A stretch of DNA of 64,000 nt from the NCBI GenBank assembly GCA_945900775.1, contig CAMDJP010000005.1, forward strand, positions 20,167-84,166. Reading direction: 5' to 3'. This document shows, one piece after another, positions 2,327 to 35,584 of this stretch (positions are counted from its first letter, which is position 1; every line of letters begins with the position of its first letter). The notes beneath the pieces were generated by a model. That model was given only the letters and a program-made list of their open reading frames with translations. It ran no database searches and had not been told where the DNA came from. Source of the DNA: Akkermansia muciniphila. Lineage in GTDB: Bacteria > Verrucomicrobiota > Verrucomicrobiia > Limisphaerales > SIAT01. Both the position numbers and the translations under genes were made by a program.

Positions 2327-3571
2327 ATGCCGCCCGATACGGATACGTTCATAGCGTTGATTGTCCTGCTCTGCTTCGCGGCGGCGAGTTTCTTCTTCGC
2401 TCTCGCGGAGTCGGCCCTGTTCTCGCTCGGCAAATGGCGCGTCCAGCAATTCGTCATCCGCGAACCGCGCCGCTGGAATCCAGTTGAGCGCCTGCTCGCC
2501 GCGCCTCAGGATTTGCTGGCCACGATTGTGCTTGGCAATACCTTCGCCAACGGCGCGATGATTGCGACGGCGCTAACGATGGCCCACTTCCTCGGTCGCT
2601 GGCCGTTCTTGCCCACGGCTGGCGCATTGCTCCTGCTGCTCTTACTGCTGTGCGAAGTCCTGCCCAAGACCTTGGCGGTACGCCAACCGGAGGTGTGGGC
2701 GCCGCGTGTGGCTGCGCCAATGCGTTTCTTTCTCGACCTCTCGTCGCCCGTCCGCCACGTGGCGCAATGGCTGGATTCCTTGTTGTTGAAGATTTTCATT
2801 CCCGGATCCATCAAGCCGCACGTGACCCTGACAGATGAGGAATACCACGAACTCCTCGAGATGGCCTGCCAGCAAGGCGCATTGGCCGCGACAGAAAAGG
2901 AGATCATCGTCCAGATCATCCATCTCGATCGTCGCACGGTTGCCGAGGTGATGCGCCCACGTTCACAGATGGCCTGCCTTTCGGACGAGCTTTCGCTGGA
3001 GGAGATGACCGCTGCCGCAGCGCGGTATCCGCATCGCCGCATGCCGATCTTTGACGAGACGCCCGACACGATTGTCGGTGTCCTGAACACGCGCCTGCTC
3101 CTTGCCGATCCGCAGGCGGACCTAGCCGAGGTGGTCGAGTTTCCTTCTTTCGTGCCGGAGAGCATGAACTTGTTGCAACTGCTCAAGAGCTTCCAGCGGC
3201 AGCGGCACGGCATGGCAATTGTGCTCGACGAGTATGGAGCCACAGCCGGTCTCGTCACCCTTGAGGATATTCTGCACGAACTCTTCGGTGAGTTTCACCG
3301 TGAGGGCGAGGCGCAAGGGTTTGTGATGGAGAAGCTCGGTACAGGCCGCTGGCGCGTGAATGGCACGATGTTACTGCAGGATTTTCAGCGCGAATATCCG
3401 GCGCTCGCGGTTATGCCTGGCGTCGTCACGATGGGCGGATTGGTCACAGCGCTGGCGGAGGTAGTGCCGGCGGCGGGTGAAACCGTGTCGTATCGTGGAT
3501 TGCGCCTGACAGTTCAGGCGGTCGATGATCGGCGGGTGAAAGACTTGCTGGTGGAGGTGGCGACACGATGA
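2327..3571 (+). CDS. CNNM/HlyC-CorC family transporter-like protein (DUF21 membrane domain + CBS pair + CorC_HlyC C-terminal domain)
   Basis: 414 aa. Hydrophobic N-terminal DUF21-like region with an LPKT motif, then a CBS-pair region (VAEVMRPRSQM...GVLNTRLLL...MAIVLDEYGATAGLVTLEDILHELFGE), then a C-terminal transporter-associated domain. The stop overlaps the next start (ATGA at 3568-3571). Confidence 0.85.
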   Translation: MPPDTDTFIALIVLLCFAAASFFFALAESALFSLGKWRVQQFVIREPRRWNPVERLLAAPQDLLATIVLGNTFANGAMIATALTMAHFLGRWPFLPTAGALLLLLLLLCEVLPKTLAVRQPEVWAPRVAAPMRFFLDLSSPVRHVAQWLDSLLLKIFIPGSIKPHVTLTDEEYHELLEMACQQGALAATEKEIIVQIIHLDRRTVAEVMRPRSQMACLSDELSLEEMTAAAARYPHRRMPIFDETPDTIVGVLNTRLLLADPQADLAEVVEFPSFVPESMNLLQLLKSFQRQRHGMAIVLDEYGATAGLVTLEDILHELFGEFHREGEAQGFVMEKLGTGRWRVNGTMLLQDFQREYPALAVMPGVVTMGGLVTALAEVVPAAGETVSYRGLRLTVQAVDDRRVKDLLVEVATR

Positions 3572-4554
3572 ACCCGCTATACATCATCGTTCCGCTGGTC
3601 ATTAGTCTGTCACTCGCTTTTCTGCTGGCAGGAATGGAAGCAGGGATGCTTGCGTTGAGCCGCCTGCGCGTGCGGCGGTTGGTGCGGGTGGGCAATGCGA
3701 ATGCAATCCGGTTGCAGAGCTTTCTCGATCGGCCGGAGGACTTTCTCTGGACTATTCTCGTTGGTAACACCGTGGCGAACTTCACCGCCGTGACGTTGGT
3801 CTTGCTCGCGTTGCAAAGGTTGTGGGAGCCGCAGAACGTGCTTTTCTGGTCGATGTTTTTCGGCGGAGGATTACTGTTCTACGTCTTCTTCGAACTGTTG
3901 CCGAAGATGTTGTTCCAGATGTTCCCCAATCGCCTCTGTCTGCTGTTGGTAGGGCCGTTCGGCCTGCTACACACGTTCCTGCGCCCTGCGGTATTGTTGC
4001 TTCGGGGACTCTCAGGCCTGCTCGGGCGTTGGACCGGCGGCCGCATCTTCACAGGAAACCTCTTCTTCAACCGCGAGGAGCTACGGCAGGTGATGCACGA
4101 GTCGGGACAGGCGCTCACGCCAGAGGAGAGGGCGATGATCGATCGCGTGCTCGACTTGCAGAGTGTCCCAATCCGGACGATTGCCAGCCCACTTGACCAA
4201 ACGATGGCTTTCACCACCGCCACGACGGTAAGCGAAATTCTCGCGCTGTTCCGCGAACGGCAGGTGGGTCGGCTGCCAATCTGGGAGACGGCGAATGGGC
4301 GTCCACGCGTGGTGGGGATTGTGAACGTGAACGAGTTGCTTTACCTGCCGGCTGCGGAACGCGCGCGTCCCGTCTCGCACTACCTCAAGCCGGCGCTGTT
4401 CCTCGACGAGACCACGCGGCTCGAGCCCGCGCTACGCCAGATGCAGCGCAGCGGTCAGCGCGTGGCGGTGCTGCTGGATCGTGACAAGAACGAGTGCGGC
4501 GTGGTCGGCCTGCGCGACATCCTCAACGTGGTCCTCGGCGAGGTGAAGGGCTGA
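3568..4554 (+). CDS. CNNM-like DUF21 + CBS-pair protein lacking the CorC_HlyC C-terminal domain
   Basis: 328 aa. It has the same DUF21 architecture (LPKMLF motif) and a CBS pair (VAVLLDRDKNECGVVGLRDILNVVLGE), but the protein ends right after the second CBS motif. It overlaps the upstream gene by 4 nt. Confidence 0.8.
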   Translation: MNPLYIIVPLVISLSLAFLLAGMEAGMLALSRLRVRRLVRVGNANAIRLQSFLDRPEDFLWTILVGNTVANFTAVTLVLLALQRLWEPQNVLFWSMFFGGGLLFYVFFELLPKMLFQMFPNRLCLLLVGPFGLLHTFLRPAVLLLRGLSGLLGRWTGGRIFTGNLFFNREELRQVMHESGQALTPEERAMIDRVLDLQSVPIRTIASPLDQTMAFTTATTVSEILALFRERQVGRLPIWETANGRPRVVGIVNVNELLYLPAAERARPVSHYLKPALFLDETTRLEPALRQMQRSGQRVAVLLDRDKNECGVVGLRDILNVVLGEVKG

Positions 4555-4557
4555 TCC

Positions 4558-5916
4558 ATGGATAAAGGCACGATCATCGCCATCGGATTGAAGGTGTTCG
4601 CCGTGCTGGTGCTCGTGCTTTTGAACGGCTTCTTCGTTGCCGCGGAGTTCGCGCTGGTGAAGGTCCGCGATACCCAACTCGTCACGCTCATCGCGAAGGG
4701 TCACCGGCGCGCACGTATCGCGCGGCGCGTGCTCAAGAACCTCGACGTCTCGCTCAGCGCTTGCCAACTCGGCATCACGCTTGCCAGCCTCGGTCTCGGT
4801 TGGGTGGGCGAGCCAATCTTCAGCGAGCTCCTCCAGCCTCTCTGGAAGCCGCTTAGCCTCGATGACGACCCCCAACTTCAGCACACCATTTCTTTCCTCG
4901 TTGGCTTTTCGGTCATCACTTTCCTGCATATCACCGCCGGCGAACAGGCACCGAAGTGGCTCGCCATCCAGAAGCCATTATCCACGACACTCTGGATTGC
5001 TCACCCGCTGGAATGGTTTCGCATCCTCTCCTATCCCCTCATCTGGGTCCTGAACCACGCCTCACTCTGGCTGCTTCGGCGGCTCGGGCTCGAGACGGGG
5101 AGTGAACATGAGTCCCACTCGGATGAGGAGCTGCGGCTGCTTTTCACCACGTCCCAGAAGCGCGGTGGTGGAACGCAGCTCGGGCACGACATCGTCCTAA
5201 ATGCCTTCGACCTTCGCCATCGCGTCGCCCGCGAGGTGATGCGCCCTCGAAAGGAAATCGTTGGCTTGGACACCGAGGCGTCGATTGGCGACTGCCTCGA
5301 TTTGGCAGAGAAGACTCGATACTCGCGCTTCCCGCTCTGCGAGAACGGCGACCTTGACCGCACGCTCGGCGTGGTTCACATCAAGGATCTCTTCGCCAAA
5401 CGCCACGGCGCGCAGACCGCCGCCGATCTGGGGCTCCTTGCTCGCAAGATTATCTTCGTGCCGGAGACGGCGCGGCTCGAGAAGCTCCTCCAGCTCTTTC
5501 TCGACCGGAAGCTGCACCTCGCGCTCGTGGTAGACGAGTTCGGCGGCACGGTCGGGATGGTGACGCTCGAGAATGTGCTGGAGGAACTCGTCGGCCAGAT
5601 TCAAGACGAGTTCGATCAGGAGAAGCAGCTTATCGTGAAGACCAGCGAGCAGAGCTGGGAGTTGGATGGCGCGCTACCGTTGCATGAACTGGGCGAGTTG
5701 GTGGGCGATTTAATCCAGCAGGAAGGCATCACCACTGTTAGCGGTTGGGTCACCTACCGCTGCGGCGGCTTCCCGAAGACCGGTGATTTACTACAGTGCG
5801 GCTCTTATCAATTGCGCGTGGAGGAGATGGACGGGATGCGCGTGGCCCGGCTCAAGCTCACGCGTACCGAGTTGGGCGACCCCTTCGAGACCGGCAAGGA
5901 AAAGAGACCCCAATAG
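4558..5916 (+). CDS. CNNM/HlyC-CorC family protein (DUF21 + CBS pair + CorC_HlyC domain)
   Basis: 452 aa. The N-terminus (FFVAAEFALVKVRDTQL, APKWLAIQ) is typical of TlyC/CorC-type DUF21 proteins. It also has a CBS pair (HLALVVDEFGGTVGMVTLENVLEELVGQIQDEFD) and a C-terminal domain. It starts 3 nt after the previous stop. Confidence 0.85.
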   Translation: MDKGTIIAIGLKVFAVLVLVLLNGFFVAAEFALVKVRDTQLVTLIAKGHRRARIARRVLKNLDVSLSACQLGITLASLGLGWVGEPIFSELLQPLWKPLSLDDDPQLQHTISFLVGFSVITFLHITAGEQAPKWLAIQKPLSTTLWIAHPLEWFRILSYPLIWVLNHASLWLLRRLGLETGSEHESHSDEELRLLFTTSQKRGGGTQLGHDIVLNAFDLRHRVAREVMRPRKEIVGLDTEASIGDCLDLAEKTRYSRFPLCENGDLDRTLGVVHIKDLFAKRHGAQTAADLGLLARKIIFVPETARLEKLLQLFLDRKLHLALVVDEFGGTVGMVTLENVLEELVGQIQDEFDQEKQLIVKTSEQSWELDGALPLHELGELVGDLIQQEGITTVSGWVTYRCGGFPKTGDLLQCGSYQLRVEEMDGMRVARLKLTRTELGDPFETGKEKRPQ

Positions 5917-32403: not shown

Positions 32404-32570
32404 GTGGCGAAGATAAACAATCACGATCAACTGTGCTAGCTGGAAGGCGAGAGTCATGCTGGAGGAAGGGGACTCATTGCGGATGTGCCGAATCGAAATA
32501 GCCGTTGACACTTCGAAAGTGACATATCATTGTATCTCCATCCGTTGATTTGACGGATGACTCATCACGA

Positions 32571-32678
32571 GTGGCTGAGGGACTGGCCCGAAGACGCCAC
32601 GGCAACCGGTTGGAGCGTGTGCTTCAATGTTTAGGTGCCAATTCCAGCCCGCCCGATAACGGCGCGGGGAAAGATGAG
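32571..32678 (+). promoter_or_regulatory. SAM-I (S-box) riboswitch aptamer
   Basis: CUCAUCACGAGUGGCUGAGGGACUGGCCCGAAGACGCCACGGCAACC...GGUGCCAAUUCCAGCC...GGGGAAAGAUGAG matches the conserved SAM-I core: P1 CUCAUC/GAUGAG, GAGGGA, UGGCCC, GCAACC, GGUGC-AAUUCC, GAAAGAU. It lies in the 5' leader of the thrC-like gene. Confidence 0.9.
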
Positions 32679-32697
32679 AAGAGCGCGCGAGCTTTCG

Positions 32698-32730
32698 GCC
32701 CCTTCTCACCGTGGTGGGAAGGGGCTTTTT
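32698..32730 (+). terminator. Riboswitch expression platform: intrinsic terminator with competing antiterminator
   Basis: Stem GCCCCTTC (32698-32705) / GAAGGGGC (32718-32725) followed by T5. CTTCTC (32702-32707) can instead pair with GAGAAG (32676-32681), which overlaps the 3' strand of P1. Confidence 0.8.
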
Positions 32731-32747
32731 GCGCCCCGGAAGGACGC

Positions 32748-34016
32748 ATGATTATGGAAAAGCACGACGGTTTCATGAAGGCGCTCAAGTGTCGCGAGTG
32801 CGGCCGGGAATATCCGCTCGCCGCGACACACGTCTGCGAGTTCGATTTCGGCCCGCTGGAGGTCGCCTACGATTACGACCGCATCAAGAAGTCGCTCACC
32901 CGTGCCGCTATCGAGTCGCGCCCGCAGACCATGTGGCGCTACCGCGAATTACTCCCGATTGCCGGCGCGCCGACCGTGGGTTGTCAGGTCGGCTTCACGC
33001 CGCTGGTGAAGGCGGATCGACTCGCCAAGCGCCTCGGTATTCGCGAACTATGGGTGAAGAACGATGCGGTCAACTACCCGACTCTCTCCTTCAAAGACCG
33101 CGTGGTCAGCGTCGCTCTCAGCCGCTCTAAGGAACTCGGCTTCAAGACCGTCGCCTGCGCGTCCACGGGCAATCTCGCCAACTCCGTCGCCGCCAACGCC
33201 GCCGCCGCCGGTCTCAAGTCCTTCGTCTTTATTCCGTCTGATCTCGAGCAGGGCAAAGTGATTAATTCGCTCGTCTACGGCGCGAACGTCATCAGCATAA
33301 AGGGCCACTACGACGAGGTGAACCGCTTGTGCGCAGAAATCGCTGGCAAGTTCGGGTGGGCCTTCGTGAACGTGAACATGCGCCCCTATTATGCCGAGGG
33401 CTCTAAATCGATGGGCTTCGAAATCCTTGAGCAGCTCGGCTGGCGCATTCCGCAGCACACCGTCGTGCCGATGGCTTCGGGCTCATTGCTGACCAAGATT
33501 CACAAGAGCTATCAGGAGTTCGTGAAGATTGGCCTCGTGCGCGACGCGAAGTATCACGTCCACGGTGCGCAGCCGACCGGCTGCAATCCGATTTCCGCTG
33601 CCCAGAAGGCCGGGCTCGATTTCTTCAAGCCGGTCAAGCCGAACACCATCGCCAAGAGCTTGGCCATCGGTACGCCAGCCGATGGCTTTTACGCGCTCAA
33701 GGTGATGAAGGAGACTGGGGCTTCCGCCGAGGACGTGACCGACGACGAGGTGCGCGAGGGCATCCGCCTGCTGGCTGAGTGCGAGGGCATTTTCGCTGAG
33801 ACCGCTGGCGGCGTGACAGTGGGCGTGGCCAAGAAACTCATTGCCTCGGGCAGGATTCCTGCGAATGATTCGGTCGTGCTCTGCGTCACCGGCAACGGCC
33901 TTAAGACGCTCGACGCGGTGGCCGGCCACGTTGGTCGCACGCGCGATATCAAGCCGAGCCTTCGCGAGTTCGAGGCGCTCATCAACTCCGAGGCTGAACT
34001 GGCCGCTGCCATTTAA
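32748..34016 (+). CDS. Threonine synthase-family PLP enzyme (ThrC-like; possibly a MetM-type homocysteine synthase, see findings)
   Basis: 422 aa from the ATG at 32748, with a GGAAGGA RBS upstream. N-terminal Cys ribbon (KCRECGREY...THVCEFDFGPLE), the PLP-Lys motif PTLSFKDRVVS, and ASTGNLANSVAA. The listed start at 32550 would run through the riboswitch and terminator. Confidence 0.85.
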   Translation: MIMEKHDGFMKALKCRECGREYPLAATHVCEFDFGPLEVAYDYDRIKKSLTRAAIESRPQTMWRYRELLPIAGAPTVGCQVGFTPLVKADRLAKRLGIRELWVKNDAVNYPTLSFKDRVVSVALSRSKELGFKTVACASTGNLANSVAANAAAAGLKSFVFIPSDLEQGKVINSLVYGANVISIKGHYDEVNRLCAEIAGKFGWAFVNVNMRPYYAEGSKSMGFEILEQLGWRIPQHTVVPMASGSLLTKIHKSYQEFVKIGLVRDAKYHVHGAQPTGCNPISAAQKAGLDFFKPVKPNTIAKSLAIGTPADGFYALKVMKETGASAEDVTDDEVREGIRLLAECEGIFAETAGGVTVGVAKKLIASGRIPANDSVVLCVTGNGLKTLDAVAGHVGRTRDIKPSLREFEALINSEAELAAAI

Positions 34017-34027
34017 ACCAACCATTT

Positions 34028-34303
34028 ATGTCCGTCAAAGTCCGCATTCCCACACCGCTCCGCAAGCTTACCAACAACGAGGAGCTTGTTGAGGTCAGCG
34101 CTAATACCATTGGCGAAGTCTTTACCGAGCTCCAGACTCTCTACCCCGGCATTCAAGAACGTCTCCTCGACGAAAAAGGTGAGGTGCGCCGCTTCGTGAA
34201 CGTCTACGTGAACGAGGAGGATATTCGCTTCCTCCAGAACCAGCAGACGCCGCTCAAGGCGGGTGACGAGATTAGTATCATCCCCGCCATCGCCGGCGGC
34301 TAG
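34028..34303 (+). CDS. MoaD/ThiS-family ubiquitin-like sulfur-carrier protein ending in Gly-Gly
   Basis: 91 aa, with a MoaD-like beta-grasp pattern (VKVRIPTPLRKLT...VNVYVNEEDIRF...LKAGDEISIIPAIAGG). The stop codon follows the C-terminal GG directly. Confidence 0.85.
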   Translation: MSVKVRIPTPLRKLTNNEELVEVSANTIGEVFTELQTLYPGIQERLLDEKGEVRRFVNVYVNEEDIRFLQNQQTPLKAGDEISIIPAIAGG

Positions 34304-34319
34304 GCTCCAAGGTTTTCGC

Positions 34320-34607
34320 ATGGCCACCGCTCGCAAGAAAAAAAAGCCCGCCACGAAGAACGGCGTTCAGGCCACCCGGCTTTGGCTTATGTACCCGCCG
34401 CGATTGATCAAGAGGCCCGTGGTTTGGGAGCTGAGCCATCAGTTCAAAGTCGTGACGAATGTCCGGCAGGTGAGCGTCACCGACGAAATCGGCGTCGTCT
34501 GCCTTGAGCTCGACGGCGAGCGGTCCGAGATCAAGGCCGCAATCAAATGGCTCGAGAAGCTCGGCGTGAAGGTCGAGCCGGTCGAGTTTAACGTCATCGA
34601 GAGCTAA
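34320..34607 (+). CDS. Stand-alone NIL-domain protein
   Basis: 95 aa from the ATG at 34320. The sequence resembles the NIL domain found at the C-terminus of MetN methionine-importer ATPases (RLWLMYPP...KRPVVWELSHQFKVVTNVRQVSV...GVVCLELDG...AIKWLEKLGVKVE). Lys-rich N-terminal tail. Confidence 0.7.
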   Translation: MATARKKKKPATKNGVQATRLWLMYPPRLIKRPVVWELSHQFKVVTNVRQVSVTDEIGVVCLELDGERSEIKAAIKWLEKLGVKVEPVEFNVIES

Positions 34608-34644: not shown

Positions 34645-35442
34645 ATGGACCTTGGCTTGAAAGATAAGGTGGTGCTCATCAGCGGCGGAGCCTCCGGTAT
34701 TGGCGAAGCCACCGTGCGATTGCTCGCTGCTGAAGGTGCGCGAGTCGCCATCGCCGACCGCAATTCCTCCGCCGGCTCCCTCCTTGCTAGCGAACTTACG
34801 GCGACTGGAGTTCAGGCCATTTTTCTCCATGGCGACCTCGCCACTGAATCCGCCTGTCGCGCGGCTGTGGATGATACGCTGAAGATGTGGGGACGCTTGG
34901 ATGTCCTCGTGAACAACGCCGGCGTGAATGACAGCGTTGGCTTGGAACGCCCTCCGGCGGATTTTCTGGCCTCGCTGCAATTGAATCTGTTCCACGTCTA
35001 TGCGCTGACGCACTTCGCGCGCGAGGCACTTTGCCGCGCGCAAGGCGCTATTGTGAACGTCAGTTCGAAGGTGAGCGTGACGGGTCAGGGGAAGACCTCT
35101 GGGTACGCGGCGGCTAAGGGCGGCGTGAACGCCCTCACGCGCGAATGGGCCGTGGCGCTCGCCCCGCATAACGTGCGCGTGAATTGCGTGGTGCCGGCTG
35201 AGTGTGCTACTCCGCAGTACGAGAAATGGTTTCAATCGCTGCCGGATCCAGCCTCGGCGCGCGCCGCCATTGAATCACTAGTGCCGCTGGGTCAGCGCCT
35301 GACGCAACCGAATGAAATCGCCGCGGTCATCGCCTTTCTCGCCTCGCCTCGCGCGGGGCATACGACTGGTCAGTTGCTCTTTGTGGATGGTGGTTACACG
35401 CACCTTGATCGCGCCGCCAGTCATGGCCACGAAAAGTGGTGA
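34645..35442 (+). CDS. Short-chain dehydrogenase/reductase (SDR) family oxidoreductase
   Basis: 265 aa. Rossmann motif VVLISGGASGIGEA, an NNAG motif (LVNNAGVND), and the catalytic YAAAK. Confidence 0.85.
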   Translation: MDLGLKDKVVLISGGASGIGEATVRLLAAEGARVAIADRNSSAGSLLASELTATGVQAIFLHGDLATESACRAAVDDTLKMWGRLDVLVNNAGVNDSVGLERPPADFLASLQLNLFHVYALTHFAREALCRAQGAIVNVSSKVSVTGQGKTSGYAAAKGGVNALTREWAVALAPHNVRVNCVVPAECATPQYEKWFQSLPDPASARAAIESLVPLGQRLTQPNEIAAVIAFLASPRAGHTTGQLLFVDGGYTHLDRAASHGHEKW

Positions 35443-35508: not shown

Positions 35509-35584
35509 GGGCGGTTGGCGCAGTGGTTAGCGCAGATGCCTTACACGCATTTGGTCGGGGGTTCGAGTCCCTCACCGCCCACCA
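35509..35584 (+). tRNA. tRNA-Val (anticodon UAC), CCA encoded
   Basis: Manual cloverleaf: acceptor GGGCGGT/ACCGCCC, D arm GCGC-AGTGGTTA-GCGC, anticodon arm GATGC-CTTACAC-GCATT, T arm GGGGG-TTCGAGT-CCCTC, discriminator A, CCA. Confidence 0.9.

Follow-up and report, generated by a model that had tools for sequence, protein, structure and literature searches.

Why should a gene annotated as a threonine synthase lie behind a SAM riboswitch, and why should it be followed by a small protein ending in Gly-Gly and by a free NIL domain? This question is raised by positions 32559-34607 of the window, the whole 64-kb stretch of DNA analyzed here. From homology and gene context, we consider it probable that this region is one SAM-repressed operon that makes homocysteine by the MetM/MetO protein-thiocarboxylate route, with a conserved NIL protein as accessory. 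The following features were located:

32559-32680, + strand: SAM-I (S-box) riboswitch aptamer, RF00162 match over the full model (1-108)
32675-32708, + strand: antiterminator helix, UGAGAAG (32675-32681) with CUUCUCA (32702-32708)
32697-32730, + strand: intrinsic terminator, 13-bp G+C-rich hairpin and U5, in minimum-free-energy and centroid folds
32738-32744, + strand: Shine-Dalgarno-like GGAAGGA, 9 nt upstream of the ATG at 32754
32754-34016, + strand: MetM-type ThrC paralogue, putative O-phosphohomoserine-dependent homocysteine synthase, 420 aa, PALP domain
34028-34303, + strand: MetO/CysO-type beta-grasp sulfur-carrier protein, 91 aa, AIAGG followed by the stop codon
34320-34607, + strand: stand-alone NIL-domain protein, 95 aa, Pfam NIL 37.4 bits

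The identity of the leader RNA is clear. An Rfam covariance-model search of the window gave a significant match to RF00162 (74.3 bits, E 1.5e-15; gathering score 44.4), and the aptamer scores 112.7 bits under a covariance model built in the present analysis. The preliminary description had placed a SAM-I riboswitch at 32571-32678; the identity stands, but the element is slightly wider. Helix P1 is formed by CUCAUC (32561-32566) and GAUGAG (32673-32678). In 26 homologous leaders, 97% of the P1-P4 cells are paired and 15 pairs are changed on both sides, values matched by none of 500 shuffles. Downstream, folding recovered the previously proposed terminator as a 13-bp stem (32697-32709 with 32714-32726) with the loop CGUG and UUUUU at 32726-32730, and a comparable hairpin with a U-run is present in at least 13 related leaders. 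A simple consensus terminator scan of the region did not pick up this terminator, probably because counting U32726 in the stem leaves four U in the tail window. The alternative GAGAAG/CUUCUC pairing described before is also present and is one pair longer (7 bp). This antiterminator shares bases with the 3' strand of P1 and with the 5' arm of the terminator, competing with both, and the GAGAAG...CUUCUC arrangement is shared by leaders L001, L004 and L005 of Verrucomicrobiota. It arises spontaneously in minimum-free-energy folds of transcripts truncated at 32708 or 32712, while in the full leader the forced antiterminator has -78.5 kcal/mol versus -80.3 for the terminator state. The fold energy of the whole leader is not exceptional (z = -1.77).

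The geometry of an OFF switch, as first suggested, holds in both the sequence and the folds, which point to SAM-dependent control of the operon. When SAM is low, the nascent leader would pair 32675-32681 with 32702-32708 and RNA polymerase would continue into the genes. When SAM is high, the ligand would lock the aptamer and close P1, sequestering GAGAAG, so that the terminator would form and transcription would halt. In a comparative set of 80 loci from 80 genomes, the orthologous enzyme gene is immediately preceded by a SAM-I riboswitch in 25 loci of at least six phyla, found in Verrucomicrobiota, Kiritimatiellae, Planctomycetota, Mariprofundaceae, Deltaproteobacteria and Acidobacteriota, plus Micromonospora.

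What, then, does the first gene encode? The 422 aa reported initially would follow from an in-frame ATG at 32748, but the start at 32754 is preferred because of the Shine-Dalgarno spacing, the 420-aa length of the homologues and the public gene call. The protein has a PALP domain (Pfam, 232 bits), with the PLP lysine K114 in TLSFKDRVV, so the ThrC-like character and the SFKDR motif noted earlier were retained. The N-terminal Cys ribbon is likewise present (C13, C16, C28), although Asp31 stands where most relatives have a fourth Cys. One explanation would be that the gene encodes a genuine or bifunctional threonine synthase under SAM control, with the carrier and the NIL protein as unrelated passengers. 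TIGR00260 (thrC) does pass its cut-off (272 bits, cut-off 167), which is counter-evidence to our reading, the catalytic lysine motif and overall fold match ThrC structures (E 8e-52), and all public annotations read "threonine synthase". NCBIfam offers thrC models only, however, and TIGR00260 is above cut-off for every clade member tested.

The closer comparison argues against threonine synthesis. Identity to solved ThrCs is only 35-36% (residues 56-391) and reaches 55-62% with MetM-like proteins of Microcystis, Micromonosporaceae and Nitrospirota. Neighbor-joining, a placement that had been proposed as a check, put the window enzyme in a clade of 85 sequences together with homologues from Microcystis and Micromonosporaceae, and all ThrC references fall outside. 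The motifs differ as well: TGSFKDRGM of canonical ThrC is TLSFKDRVV here, PVGNAG is PMASG and NPASW is TPADG. Since VN-SVNPxR became VNVNxRPYY, the phosphate-binding R160 is lost; Y213 takes its place, a new R210 appears, and the change of the phosphate loop from NPxR to RPYY extends across the clade. In Nitrospirota, both paralogues lie side by side in L021, L028 and L051, and the gene order is metM-like gene, carrier, NIL, thrC, HomK, aspartokinase. The second copy shares 62% identity with Thermus thermophilus ThrC and 34% with the window enzyme, against 62% with the window enzyme for the first copy in L021; the HomK-type homoserine kinase is well supported (TIGR02535, 567 bits, cut-off 446). 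This gene order points to O-phosphohomoserine as the substrate. A SAM riboswitch in at least six phyla also fits methionine synthesis rather than threonine synthesis, and the conserved GG carrier and the E1 fusions, described below, likewise count against this explanation.

Two further points favor threonine synthase. No second thrC was found in the 64-kb window, which also lacks an E1, a JAMM protease, a homoserine kinase, other met genes and a CysM-like gene; that the E1 lies outside had been stated before and is borne out. In addition, a Microcystis homologue, 51.6% identical to MetM of Streptomyces albulus and with a neighbor 47% identical to MetO, made threonine from O-phosphohomoserine and deaminated threonine in vitro; its authors doubted a full MetM role, although the sulfur source was Na2S and not a thiocarboxylated carrier (PMC12172450). 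The window enzyme is linked to S. albulus MetM only indirectly, through this reported Microcystis identity. On the other side, MetM shares only 33% identity with Bacillus subtilis ThrC (preprint 10.64898/2026.09.15.751699), and it is often misannotated as ThrC (GapMind 2026). Weighing both sides, we regard a threonine synthase as unlikely, and the product of the first gene is most likely, judging from its sequence relationships, a homocysteine synthase.

The second gene encodes the probable sulfur donor. As previously described, it is a 91-aa MoaD/ThiS-type protein whose stop codon directly follows the GG; it matches Pfam ThiS (65.9 bits) and TIGR01687 (53.8 bits, cut-off 49.5). Its best solved relative is Mycobacterium tuberculosis CysO (3dwg_C, E 3.3e-21, full length, 47% identity), and it shares 57% identity with the carrier of Microcystis. 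Because the chain ends exactly at GG, it should not need the Mec/JAMM maturation listed for MetO in GapMind. The spacer between the enzyme and carrier genes is 11 nt in the window, and a homologous GG carrier lies downstream of the enzyme gene in 73 of the 80 loci. ThiF/MoeB-type E1 genes adjoin the pair on the same strand in nine loci; fusions also occur, of E1 with the carrier in L061 and of ThiF with the enzyme in P0299. CysM-like genes occur in the same cluster in nine loci, and JAMM genes cluster with the enzyme in some other phyla.

Does the enzyme depend on this carrier? It might instead sulfhydrylate O-phosphohomoserine directly with free sulfide, the carrier serving a CysM-type, molybdopterin or tRNA-thiolation pathway. 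The adjacent carrier is indeed missing at several loci (L003, L026, L029, L057, L069, L076 and Micromonospora L081), the clustered CysM-like genes may share the carrier or have it dedicated to cysteine synthesis, and a molybdopterin-binding oxidoreductase encoded in the window implies that MoaD-type chemistry exists in the organism. This would leave unexplained the close pairing of enzyme and carrier genes and the ThiF-enzyme fusion. Moreover, cyanobacteria and Verrucomicrobiota pair the carrier with the enzyme and have no CysM-like gene nearby, and GapMind 2026 describes the S. albulus enzyme as dependent on MetO thiocarboxylate. We therefore judge free sulfide an improbable donor.

The other substrate to be considered is O-phosphoserine, in which case the module would make cysteine or a related thiol, as a CysM/CysO analogue on a ThrC scaffold. 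S-box regulons in some bacteria cover cysteine-related genes, and the nearest solved relative of the carrier comes from the O-phosphoserine-dependent CysM system. ThrC-family members can take O-phosphoserine, as in cysteate synthase, but that model (TIGR03844) matches the window enzyme weakly, at 63.6 bits, far under its cut-off of 324.9. Loci with a dedicated CysM-like gene also retain the ThrC-like gene, which implies different products, and the linkage to thrC, HomK and aspartokinase in Nitrospirota marks the O-phosphohomoserine branch point. Cysteine is thus a very unlikely product.

The reading of the locus as a MetM/MetO-like operon mislabelled as thrC, already put forward in the preliminary description, is supported by the enzyme clade, the carrier, the E1 associations, the riboswitch and the thrC-only NCBIfam models. 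By this route, a ThiF/MoeB/MoeZ-type E1 from another part of the genome would adenylate the 91-aa carrier at its free Gly-Gly, and the adenylated carrier would be converted to the thiocarboxylate. The 420-aa ThrC paralogue with PLP would eliminate phosphate from O-phospho-L-homoserine, as in threonine synthase, and the thiocarboxylate would then attack C-gamma, in place of the addition of water at C-beta, to give homocysteine. Conversion of homocysteine to methionine and SAM would close the feedback loop.

The NIL gene is the least-explained part of the operon. The third gene was correctly recognized at the outset as a stand-alone NIL protein. It has a Lys-rich N-terminal tail and a beta-alpha-beta-beta-alpha-beta domain. 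The family profile matches the MetN C2 domain of Escherichia coli (3dhx, E 2.5e-9), and MetN C2 domains are the top Foldseek PDB matches of its AF2 model, which is of moderate confidence (pLDDT 68.6). N47 aligns with N295 of MetN, the methionine-contacting Asn, and is kept in 16 of 18 sequences. The gene adjoins the carrier in 23 of the 80 loci, spanning Verrucomicrobiota, Nitrospirota, Mariprofundaceae, Planctomycetota and others; in four of the 23 (L020, L022, L023 and L027) it is fused behind the carrier GG as a MoaD-NIL single chain. As an accessory of the module, the NIL protein is genuine and conserved. Nevertheless, it is not essential to the chemistry, since it is absent from all cyanobacterial and most Planctomycetota loci of the set.

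By analogy with MetN, the most likely role of the NIL protein is to bind methionine or homocysteine and to act on the enzyme or the carrier; it could serve, for instance, as a post-translational brake or as a carrier-docking adaptor. It may alternatively sense no ligand and be the remnant or "cap" of a carrier-NIL polyprotein, removed by JAMM and, in Verrucomicrobiota, split off as a neutral or chaperone-like passenger. The four fusions have a buried GG, three of these loci also encode a JAMM protease, and JAMM genes occur in four of five loci with an internal GG versus none of 75 others (Fisher p = 3e-6, uncorrected for phylogeny). The Lys-rich tail of the stand-alone proteins also resembles the fusion linkers, and cyanobacteria dispense with NIL. 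However, the stand-alone proteins share 67-88% identity across many Verrucomicrobiota contigs, and the gene is kept in distant phyla, which speaks for selection on a separate function, and the methionine-contacting Asn is retained. The cap explanation is possible but doubtful, and we prefer a ligand-binding NIL protein.

Several known systems resemble parts of this operon. A NIL domain is also tied to homocysteine biosynthesis in the DUF39/NIL-ferredoxin system of methanogens and Desulfovibrio (MA1821/MA1822, DvMF_1464/DvMF_0262), but that pathway starts from aspartate semialdehyde and the window route would start from a homoserine ester (PMC5764234). Many homologues of the window NIL carry the JGI label "L-aspartate semialdehyde sulfurtransferase ferredoxin", although the window protein lacks a ferredoxin domain as well as a DUF39 or COG2122 partner. 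With MetN C2 (PDB 3DHX, 3TUZ and 6CVL) it has the Pfam family and fold in common, together with a predicted site in which N47 corresponds to the Asn that hydrogen-bonds L-methionine. In MetN, C2 sits at the C-terminal end of an ABC ATPase, where it brings about trans-inhibition of transport; the window NIL, by contrast, stands free as a 95-aa product of a biosynthetic operon, and in some phyla the domain is fused to a ubiquitin-like carrier.

The HcyS/HcyF/HcyD/MetY system of Wolinella succinogenes, said to have been described by Krishnamoorthy and Begley in 2011, reportedly also makes homocysteine through a GG-type protein thiocarboxylate, relying on a MetY-type O-acetylhomoserine sulfhydrylase of fold-type I and on a carrier whose C-terminal extension is cut by HcyD. 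In the window the enzyme is ThrC-like and the carrier needs no trimming. The CysM/CysO system has the chemistry predicted here, a PLP fold-type II enzyme with a protein thiocarboxylate attacking an O-phospho amino acid. The carrier relationship extends over the full length of CysO in the M. tuberculosis CysM/CysO/Mec+/MoeZ system (PDB 3DWG), and in other phyla the MetM-like gene has CysM-like, E1 and JAMM genes in its cluster. The window has none of these three genes, its enzyme belongs to the ThrC and not the CysK/CysM family, and its substrate and product would be O-phosphohomoserine and homocysteine. With canonical ThrC (T. thermophilus 1UIM, B. subtilis 6CGQ, Aquifex aeolicus 2ZSJ) the enzyme shares PLP fold-type II, the Lys in SFKDR and probably the substrate; it differs by roughly 55 additional N-terminal residues that form a Cys-rich ribbon, by its separate clade and by its context of carrier, E1 and riboswitch.

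The closest system is MetM/MetO of S. albulus, as outlined in Hasebe et al. 2024 (Appl Environ Microbiol 90:e01247-24). Both have a ThrC-homologous PLP enzyme with a small sulfur-carrier protein, a SAM riboswitch upstream (for metM, PMC12172450), common misannotation as threonine synthase and an E1 (MoeZ) encoded elsewhere. The core pathway is not new, being published in 2024 and already included in GapMind 2026 as the steps MetO, Mec, MoeZ and MetM. Unlike MetO with its Mec/JAMM step, the window carrier ends exactly at GG. We found no mention of a NIL partner of the MetM/MetO module in the part of the literature covered. The operon described here belongs to Verrucomicrobiota and has a stand-alone NIL protein as its third gene, and this conserved third partner is what goes beyond the known MetM/MetO pathway.

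The operon consists of a riboswitch leader followed by three genes, with intergenic spacers of 11 nt between the enzyme and carrier genes and 16 nt between the carrier and NIL genes.

Leader elements, genes and downstream features (window coordinates)
32559-32680, + strand: SAM-I aptamer, RF00162 at 74.3 bits against a gathering score of 44.4, E 1.5e-15, model positions 1-108 (full)
32561-32566 with 32673-32678, + strand: P1, CUCAUC/GAUGAG, from the minimum-free-energy fold
32675-32681 with 32702-32708, + strand: predicted antiterminator, UGAGAAG/CUUCUCA, from folds of transcripts truncated at 32708 or 32712
32697-32709 with 32714-32726, + strand: predicted intrinsic terminator, a 13-bp G+C-rich hairpin followed by UUUUU (32726-32730), from folding
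32754-34016, + strand: ThrC-like PLP enzyme, 420 aa, PALP domain at 232 bits
34028-34303, + strand: sulfur carrier of the ThiS/MoaD family, 91 aa, ending in AIAGG and a TAG stop
34320-34607, + strand: NIL protein, 95 aa, Pfam NIL PF09383 at 37.4 bits (cut-off 24)
34645-35442: SDR-family oxidoreductase gene, starting 37 nt after the NIL stop
35509-35584: tRNA-Val(TAC), after the SDR gene

The preliminary description had given the enzyme 422 aa, from an in-frame ATG at 32748. This start was corrected to ATG 32754, which has a Shine-Dalgarno sequence (GGAAGGA) 9 nt upstream; the homologues have 420 aa, and in the public gene calls for identical metagenome contigs the three genes have 420, 91 and 95 aa. 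The flanks are unrelated: upstream lies a minus-strand PTS-EIIA-like gene, and downstream the SDR gene and tRNA-Val. The SDR gene was considered as a fourth operon member and rejected, the gene that follows NIL being different in every other Verrucomicrobiota locus; it is probably outside the module, and read-through transcription from NIL is possible, with no visible terminator between the two. The 64-kb window contains no ThiF/E1, as had been claimed from the sequence, and no JAMM, CysM-like, HomK, aspartokinase, NifS, Rrf2 or second thrC gene detectable by phmmer. Pfam found no further pathway genes among 30 additional window ORFs, and those scanned are housekeeping genes. After ftsA-ftsZ, three CNNM/CorC-type (CBS-domain) transporter paralogues stand in a row at 2327-5916.

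The leader has the standard architecture of a transcriptional OFF switch, with a predicted response to SAM. The riboswitch match, full-length and above the gathering score as anticipated, is the only one that the Rfam search returned in the 64-kb window, and the minimum-free-energy fold of the leader recovered the four-way junction. The antiterminator, which takes part of the P1 3' strand and the 5' arm of the terminator, was reproduced in the truncated-transcript folds as proposed. When the antiterminator was forced, the full leader folded at -78.5 kcal/mol, against -80.3 kcal/mol for the terminator state, and with a gap of 1.8 kcal/mol the two states are nearly isoenergetic. A consensus terminator scan missed this hairpin, which folding revealed, apparently because the first U was counted as paired and four U were left in the tail window. 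The fold energy of the whole leader (z = -1.77) is not informative. No sigma-70 promoter was called by the consensus scan; a TTGACA is present at 32505-32510, with only poor -10 candidates, TATCAT (14-nt spacer) or CATTGT (17-nt spacer). Directly 5' of P1 there is also a 7-bp inverted repeat, CATCCGT-TGATTTG-ACGGATG (32538-32558).

Homologous loci were collected with one genome per species, which gave 80 loci distributed over Verrucomicrobiota, Kiritimatiellae, Planctomycetota, Nitrospirota, Thermodesulfobacteriota/Deltaproteobacteria, Mariprofundaceae, Acidobacteriota, Nitrospinota, Aquificaceae and many cyanobacteria. In 8 of 16 loci tested, an Rfam search placed RF00162 immediately 5' of the enzyme gene. 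A covariance model of our own, built from the RF00162-positive leaders and run on the 80 loci, detected the riboswitch in 25, in every case on the coding strand and a short way 5' of the enzyme gene; the leader of L018 (Mariprofundaceae) has a gap of about 320 nt before the gene. The riboswitch-bearing loci belong to Verrucomicrobiota, Kiritimatiellae, Planctomycetota, Mariprofundaceae, one deltaproteobacterium and Acidobacteriota, and the riboswitch also occurs in Micromonospora. With this model it was found in no cyanobacterial locus among the 80, which agrees with PMC12172450. In 26 leaders P1, P2, P3 and P4 are each 93-100% paired (97% of cells overall; slid controls, 40-51%), figures that lean toward the structure since the leader alignment was fitted to the model. 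Both-sided changes occur in 15 of the 26 pairs, and the observed values were reached by 0 of 500 shuffles. A terminator hairpin with a U-run follows the aptamer in at least 13 other leaders. In Micromonospora the start codon is only 11 nt away, which points to control of translation; in M. coriariae the riboswitch is directly upstream of the enzyme gene and the carrier gene is not adjacent. The position of the riboswitch upstream of the window enzyme predicts regulation by methionine/SAM status as in Streptomyces albulus, where metM is preceded by a SAM riboswitch (PMC12172450). SAM control of this gene, which extends over at least six phyla, agrees poorly with a role in making threonine and fits homocysteine/methionine synthesis.

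The databases nevertheless present the enzyme as a threonine synthase. Every close homologue carries this name, TIGR00260 (thrC) scores 272 bits against a cut-off of 167, and the best solved structures are true ThrCs, aligned only from residue 56 on; NF006050, at 290 bits, is under its cut-off of 303. TIGR00260 is also passed by every MetM-like protein tested, and therefore does not separate the two functions, and NCBIfam has no model that separates MetM-like proteins from ThrC. The window enzyme is 35-36% identical to the solved ThrCs (36% to Bacillus subtilis ThrC), but shares 57% identity with the homologue of Microcystis, 55% with one of the Micromonosporaceae and 62% with one of the Nitrospirota. 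The smallest clade of an NJ tree to hold the window, Microcystis and Micromonosporaceae proteins has 85 members and no ThrC reference. By tree and identities alike, the window enzyme is thus outside the group of solved ThrCs, as expected for a mislabelled thrC. Its link to S. albulus MetM is indirect, through the Microcystis homologue, which is reported to be 51.6% identical to MetM and has a neighbour 47% identical to MetO (PMC12172450); B. subtilis ThrC is reported to be only 33% identical to MetM (preprint 10.64898/2026.09.15.751699). The homologue search seeded with the actinobacterial protein P0243 returned Micromonosporaceae only.

The clade also differs from ThrC in its motifs, as listed.

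Motifs of ThrC and of the window clade
TGSFKDRGM in ThrC, T[LF]SFKDRVV in the window clade
CASTGNTS in ThrC, CASTGNLA in the window clade
VN-S[VI]NP[YH]R[LI]EGQK in ThrC, VN[VI]N[MLI]RP[YF]Y[AS]EGSK in the window clade
PVGNAG in ThrC, PMASG in the window clade
IRIGNPASW in ThrC, LAIGxPADG in the window clade

The canonical ThrC phosphate loop, N154-S155-x-N-P-x-R160 in Thermus thermophilus numbering, is replaced by VNVNMRPYY in the window enzyme, with R160 changed to Y213, S155 to N208, one inserted residue and, as a new invariant position, R210. In ThrC the Arg of this loop binds the phosphate that is kept to steer water addition. The window clade has an N-terminal Cys ribbon, which the solved ThrCs do not have. 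In Verrucomicrobiota and some Planctomycetota this zinc-ribbon-like motif reads CxxC...CxxD (residues 11-33, window 32754-32850), where Asp occupies the position of the fourth Cys, and metal binding or carrier docking are possible roles. The ribbon is largely lost in Microcystis-type cyanobacteria (LVSKEG...TFA). Paralogy also bears on the assignment: in the Nitrospirota loci L021, L028 and L051 a MetM-like gene and a second ThrC paralogue occur in one gene string, and the second paralogue shares 62% identity with T. thermophilus ThrC and has all the canonical motifs. The enzyme may be bifunctional, with threonine synthesis beside homocysteine synthesis, since the Microcystis homologue is reported to make threonine and to deaminate threonine in vitro, in assays supplied with Na2S and not with a thiocarboxylated carrier (PMC12172450). 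Among the long ThrC-like representatives no NIL fusion was found, and ThiF, LeuA-dimer and PadR fusions occur instead. The more distant ThrC-like proteins P0342, P0361 and P0382, as well as P0360 and P0364, 34-39% identical to the window enzyme, have a C-terminal LeuA allosteric/dimerisation domain or a PadR-type DNA-binding domain.

A homologous GG carrier gene lies 3' of the enzyme gene in 73 of the 80 loci. The window carrier belongs to the beta-grasp ThiS/MoaD family (PF02597, 65.9 bits; TIGR01687, 53.8 bits against a cut-off of 49.5) and is 47% identical to Mycobacterium tuberculosis CysO (3dwg_C, E 3.3e-21), a proven thiocarboxylate donor. Its Gly-Gly end is accessible, the TAG stop following AIAGG directly, exactly as had been described. 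Genes for an E1 of the ThiF/MoeB/MoeZ type occur on the same strand in 9 loci, and they are clustered with the system or fused to it in 10 related loci. E1 is fused to the carrier in L061 and to a ThrC-like enzyme in protein P0299. The latter fusion is of the Rosetta-stone type, as are the carrier fusions. Other recurring partners are CysM-like genes (9 loci), JAMM (4), NifS-like desulfurases (4) and Rrf2 regulators (3). Two tandem GG-carrier genes lie between the metM-like gene and NIL in two Verrucomicrobiota loci (L001 7265-7834, L007 7275-7892), and 8 cyanobacterial loci have an additional gene of the ThiS family immediately 5' of the metM-like one.

In Nitrospirota the same-strand order is metM-like, carrier, NIL, canonical thrC, HomK-type homoserine kinase (TIGR02535, 567 bits against a cut-off of 446) and aspartokinase, and the carrier has an extension of 2-4 residues after GG.

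Nitrospirota gene strings (locus coordinates, genes on the same strand)
L021, 5983-11381
L028, 166 to about 5700
L051, 148 to about 5800

By this gene order the enzyme belongs at the branch point of O-phosphohomoserine, and the string looks like a compact branch-point operon with both ThrC paralogues. Taken together, the clade, motifs, paralogy and context support the proposal that the operon is a MetM/MetO-like homocysteine module mislabelled as thrC.

The mechanism proposed here draws on sequence and folding for the aptamer, for the terminator that competes with the antiterminator and for the arrangement of the operon, and on homology and context for the chemistry. An E1 encoded elsewhere would adenylate and sulfurate the free Gly-Gly end of the carrier, the ThrC paralogue would eliminate phosphate from O-phosphohomoserine, and the enzyme would then capture the carrier thiocarboxylate at C-gamma to give homocysteine. 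Methionine and SAM would close a feedback loop on the operon. GapMind 2026 lists a Mec/JAMM maturation step for S. albulus MetO; the window carrier ends exactly at GG, and such maturation should therefore not be needed.

In other loci the Gly-Gly is internal, namely in four carrier-NIL fusions, single polypeptides with ...IIPAIAGG, a short basic linker and NIL, and in one carrier-E1 fusion.

Loci with an internal Gly-Gly (locus coordinates)
L020, 7282-7797: carrier-NIL fusion
L022, 3326-3856: carrier-NIL fusion
L023, 7281-7796: carrier-NIL fusion
L027, 6334-6906: carrier-NIL fusion
L061, 7229-8296: carrier-MoeB/ThiF fusion, then NIL

JAMM/Prok-JAB genes are present in 4 of these 5 loci and in 0 of the 75 others (Fisher p = 3e-6, not corrected for phylogeny), a co-occurrence that suggests proteolytic release after GG.

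The third gene does encode a stand-alone NIL domain, as first proposed, and it is the least-explained part of the operon, the only one that the literature examined does not account for. Stand-alone NIL proteins 67-88% identical to that of the window are abundant, and the named matches are from Verrucomicrobiota. Of the 80 loci, 23 have a NIL gene together with the carrier: it is a separate gene directly 3' of the carrier in 18, lies nearby on the opposite strand in L012 and is fused to the carrier in 4. These 23 are 11 of the 15 Verrucomicrobiota loci, four of Nitrospirota/Nitrospirales (L021, L025, L028 and L051), L018 of Mariprofundaceae, L034, L061, L077 and the four fusions. The association between NIL and the carrier is real. 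NIL is missing from the cyanobacterial loci and from most Planctomycetota loci, and is therefore not required for the chemistry.

The profile of the cluster-associated NIL sequences matches the C2 domain of Escherichia coli MetN (3dhx, E 2.5e-9). A single-sequence AF2 model has a beta-alpha-beta-beta-alpha-beta fold, and its Foldseek PDB matches are led by MetN C2 domains, with NikR/ACT-like regulatory domains next, at a model pLDDT of only 68.6. Residue N47 aligns with MetN N295, and the Asn is kept in 16 of 18 cluster-associated NIL sequences. In MetN, N295 forms a hydrogen bond to the inhibitory L-methionine, which the N295A variant no longer binds (PMC6233128). The window NIL is a putative Met/homocysteine sensor or carrier adaptor. 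The literature searched, a set apart from the primary MetM paper, contained no link of NIL with MetM/MetO or thiocarboxylates. Residues 1-20 (window 34320-34385) form a Lys/Thr/Ser-rich tail (MATARKKKKPATK...) found in Verrucomicrobiota stand-alone NIL proteins and probably disordered. The tail resembles the basic linker of the carrier-NIL fusions, a likeness that hints at a history of fusion or fission.

We tentatively propose, as a reading with rather less than an even chance of being right, that NIL is a functional third component of MetM/MetO systems, a MetN-C2-like sensor of Met/homocysteine that would gate the enzyme, carrier or E1, and that in some Thermodesulfobacteriota/Planctomycetota the carrier-NIL polyprotein would have to be cut after Gly-Gly by a JAMM encoded beside it. 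If so, NIL domains would mark three methionine systems (import and the routes from aspartate semialdehyde and from O-phosphohomoserine), and the JAMM-cut carrier-NIL would correspond, in bacteria, to ubiquitin-fusion precursors. NIL could add post-translational methionine feedback atop the riboswitch, or reveal ubiquitin-like precursor processing in bacteria, and the fusions behind the carrier's Gly-Gly give this partner a concrete, testable lead.

The practical value of these results lies in correcting a widespread thrC misannotation. Thousands of proteins annotated as 'threonine synthase' in Verrucomicrobiota, Planctomycetota, Nitrospirota, cyanobacteria and others are probably homocysteine synthases. 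As NCBIfam does not separate the two, metabolic reconstructions of these mostly uncultured groups would arrive at a false methionine auxotrophy or thrC duplication. The clade motif set offers a simple discriminator of MetM-like proteins and ThrC. The contexts with riboswitch, carrier, E1, JAMM, CysM-like and HomK genes present the 2024 Streptomyces pathway as a widespread modular sulfur-carrier system.

The SAM-riboswitch-controlled MetM/MetO core was described from Streptomyces in 2024, and GapMind 2026 covers it. What sets this variant apart is the conserved NIL partner, together with the carrier-NIL and carrier-E1 fusions, which merit a modest follow-up. NIL fused to ferredoxin occurs in the DUF39 route to homocysteine (PMC5764234), and no DUF39 gene was found near the window NIL. 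While the MA1822-type NIL-ferredoxin has a 4Fe-4S domain and a DUF39 partner, the window NIL has no ferredoxin and a single Cys (C61). In MetN the NIL/C2 domain is attached to an ABC-transporter ATPase, whereas the window NIL stands alone at 95 aa and scores 15.3 bits on the MetN model TIGR02314, against a cut-off of 499.7.
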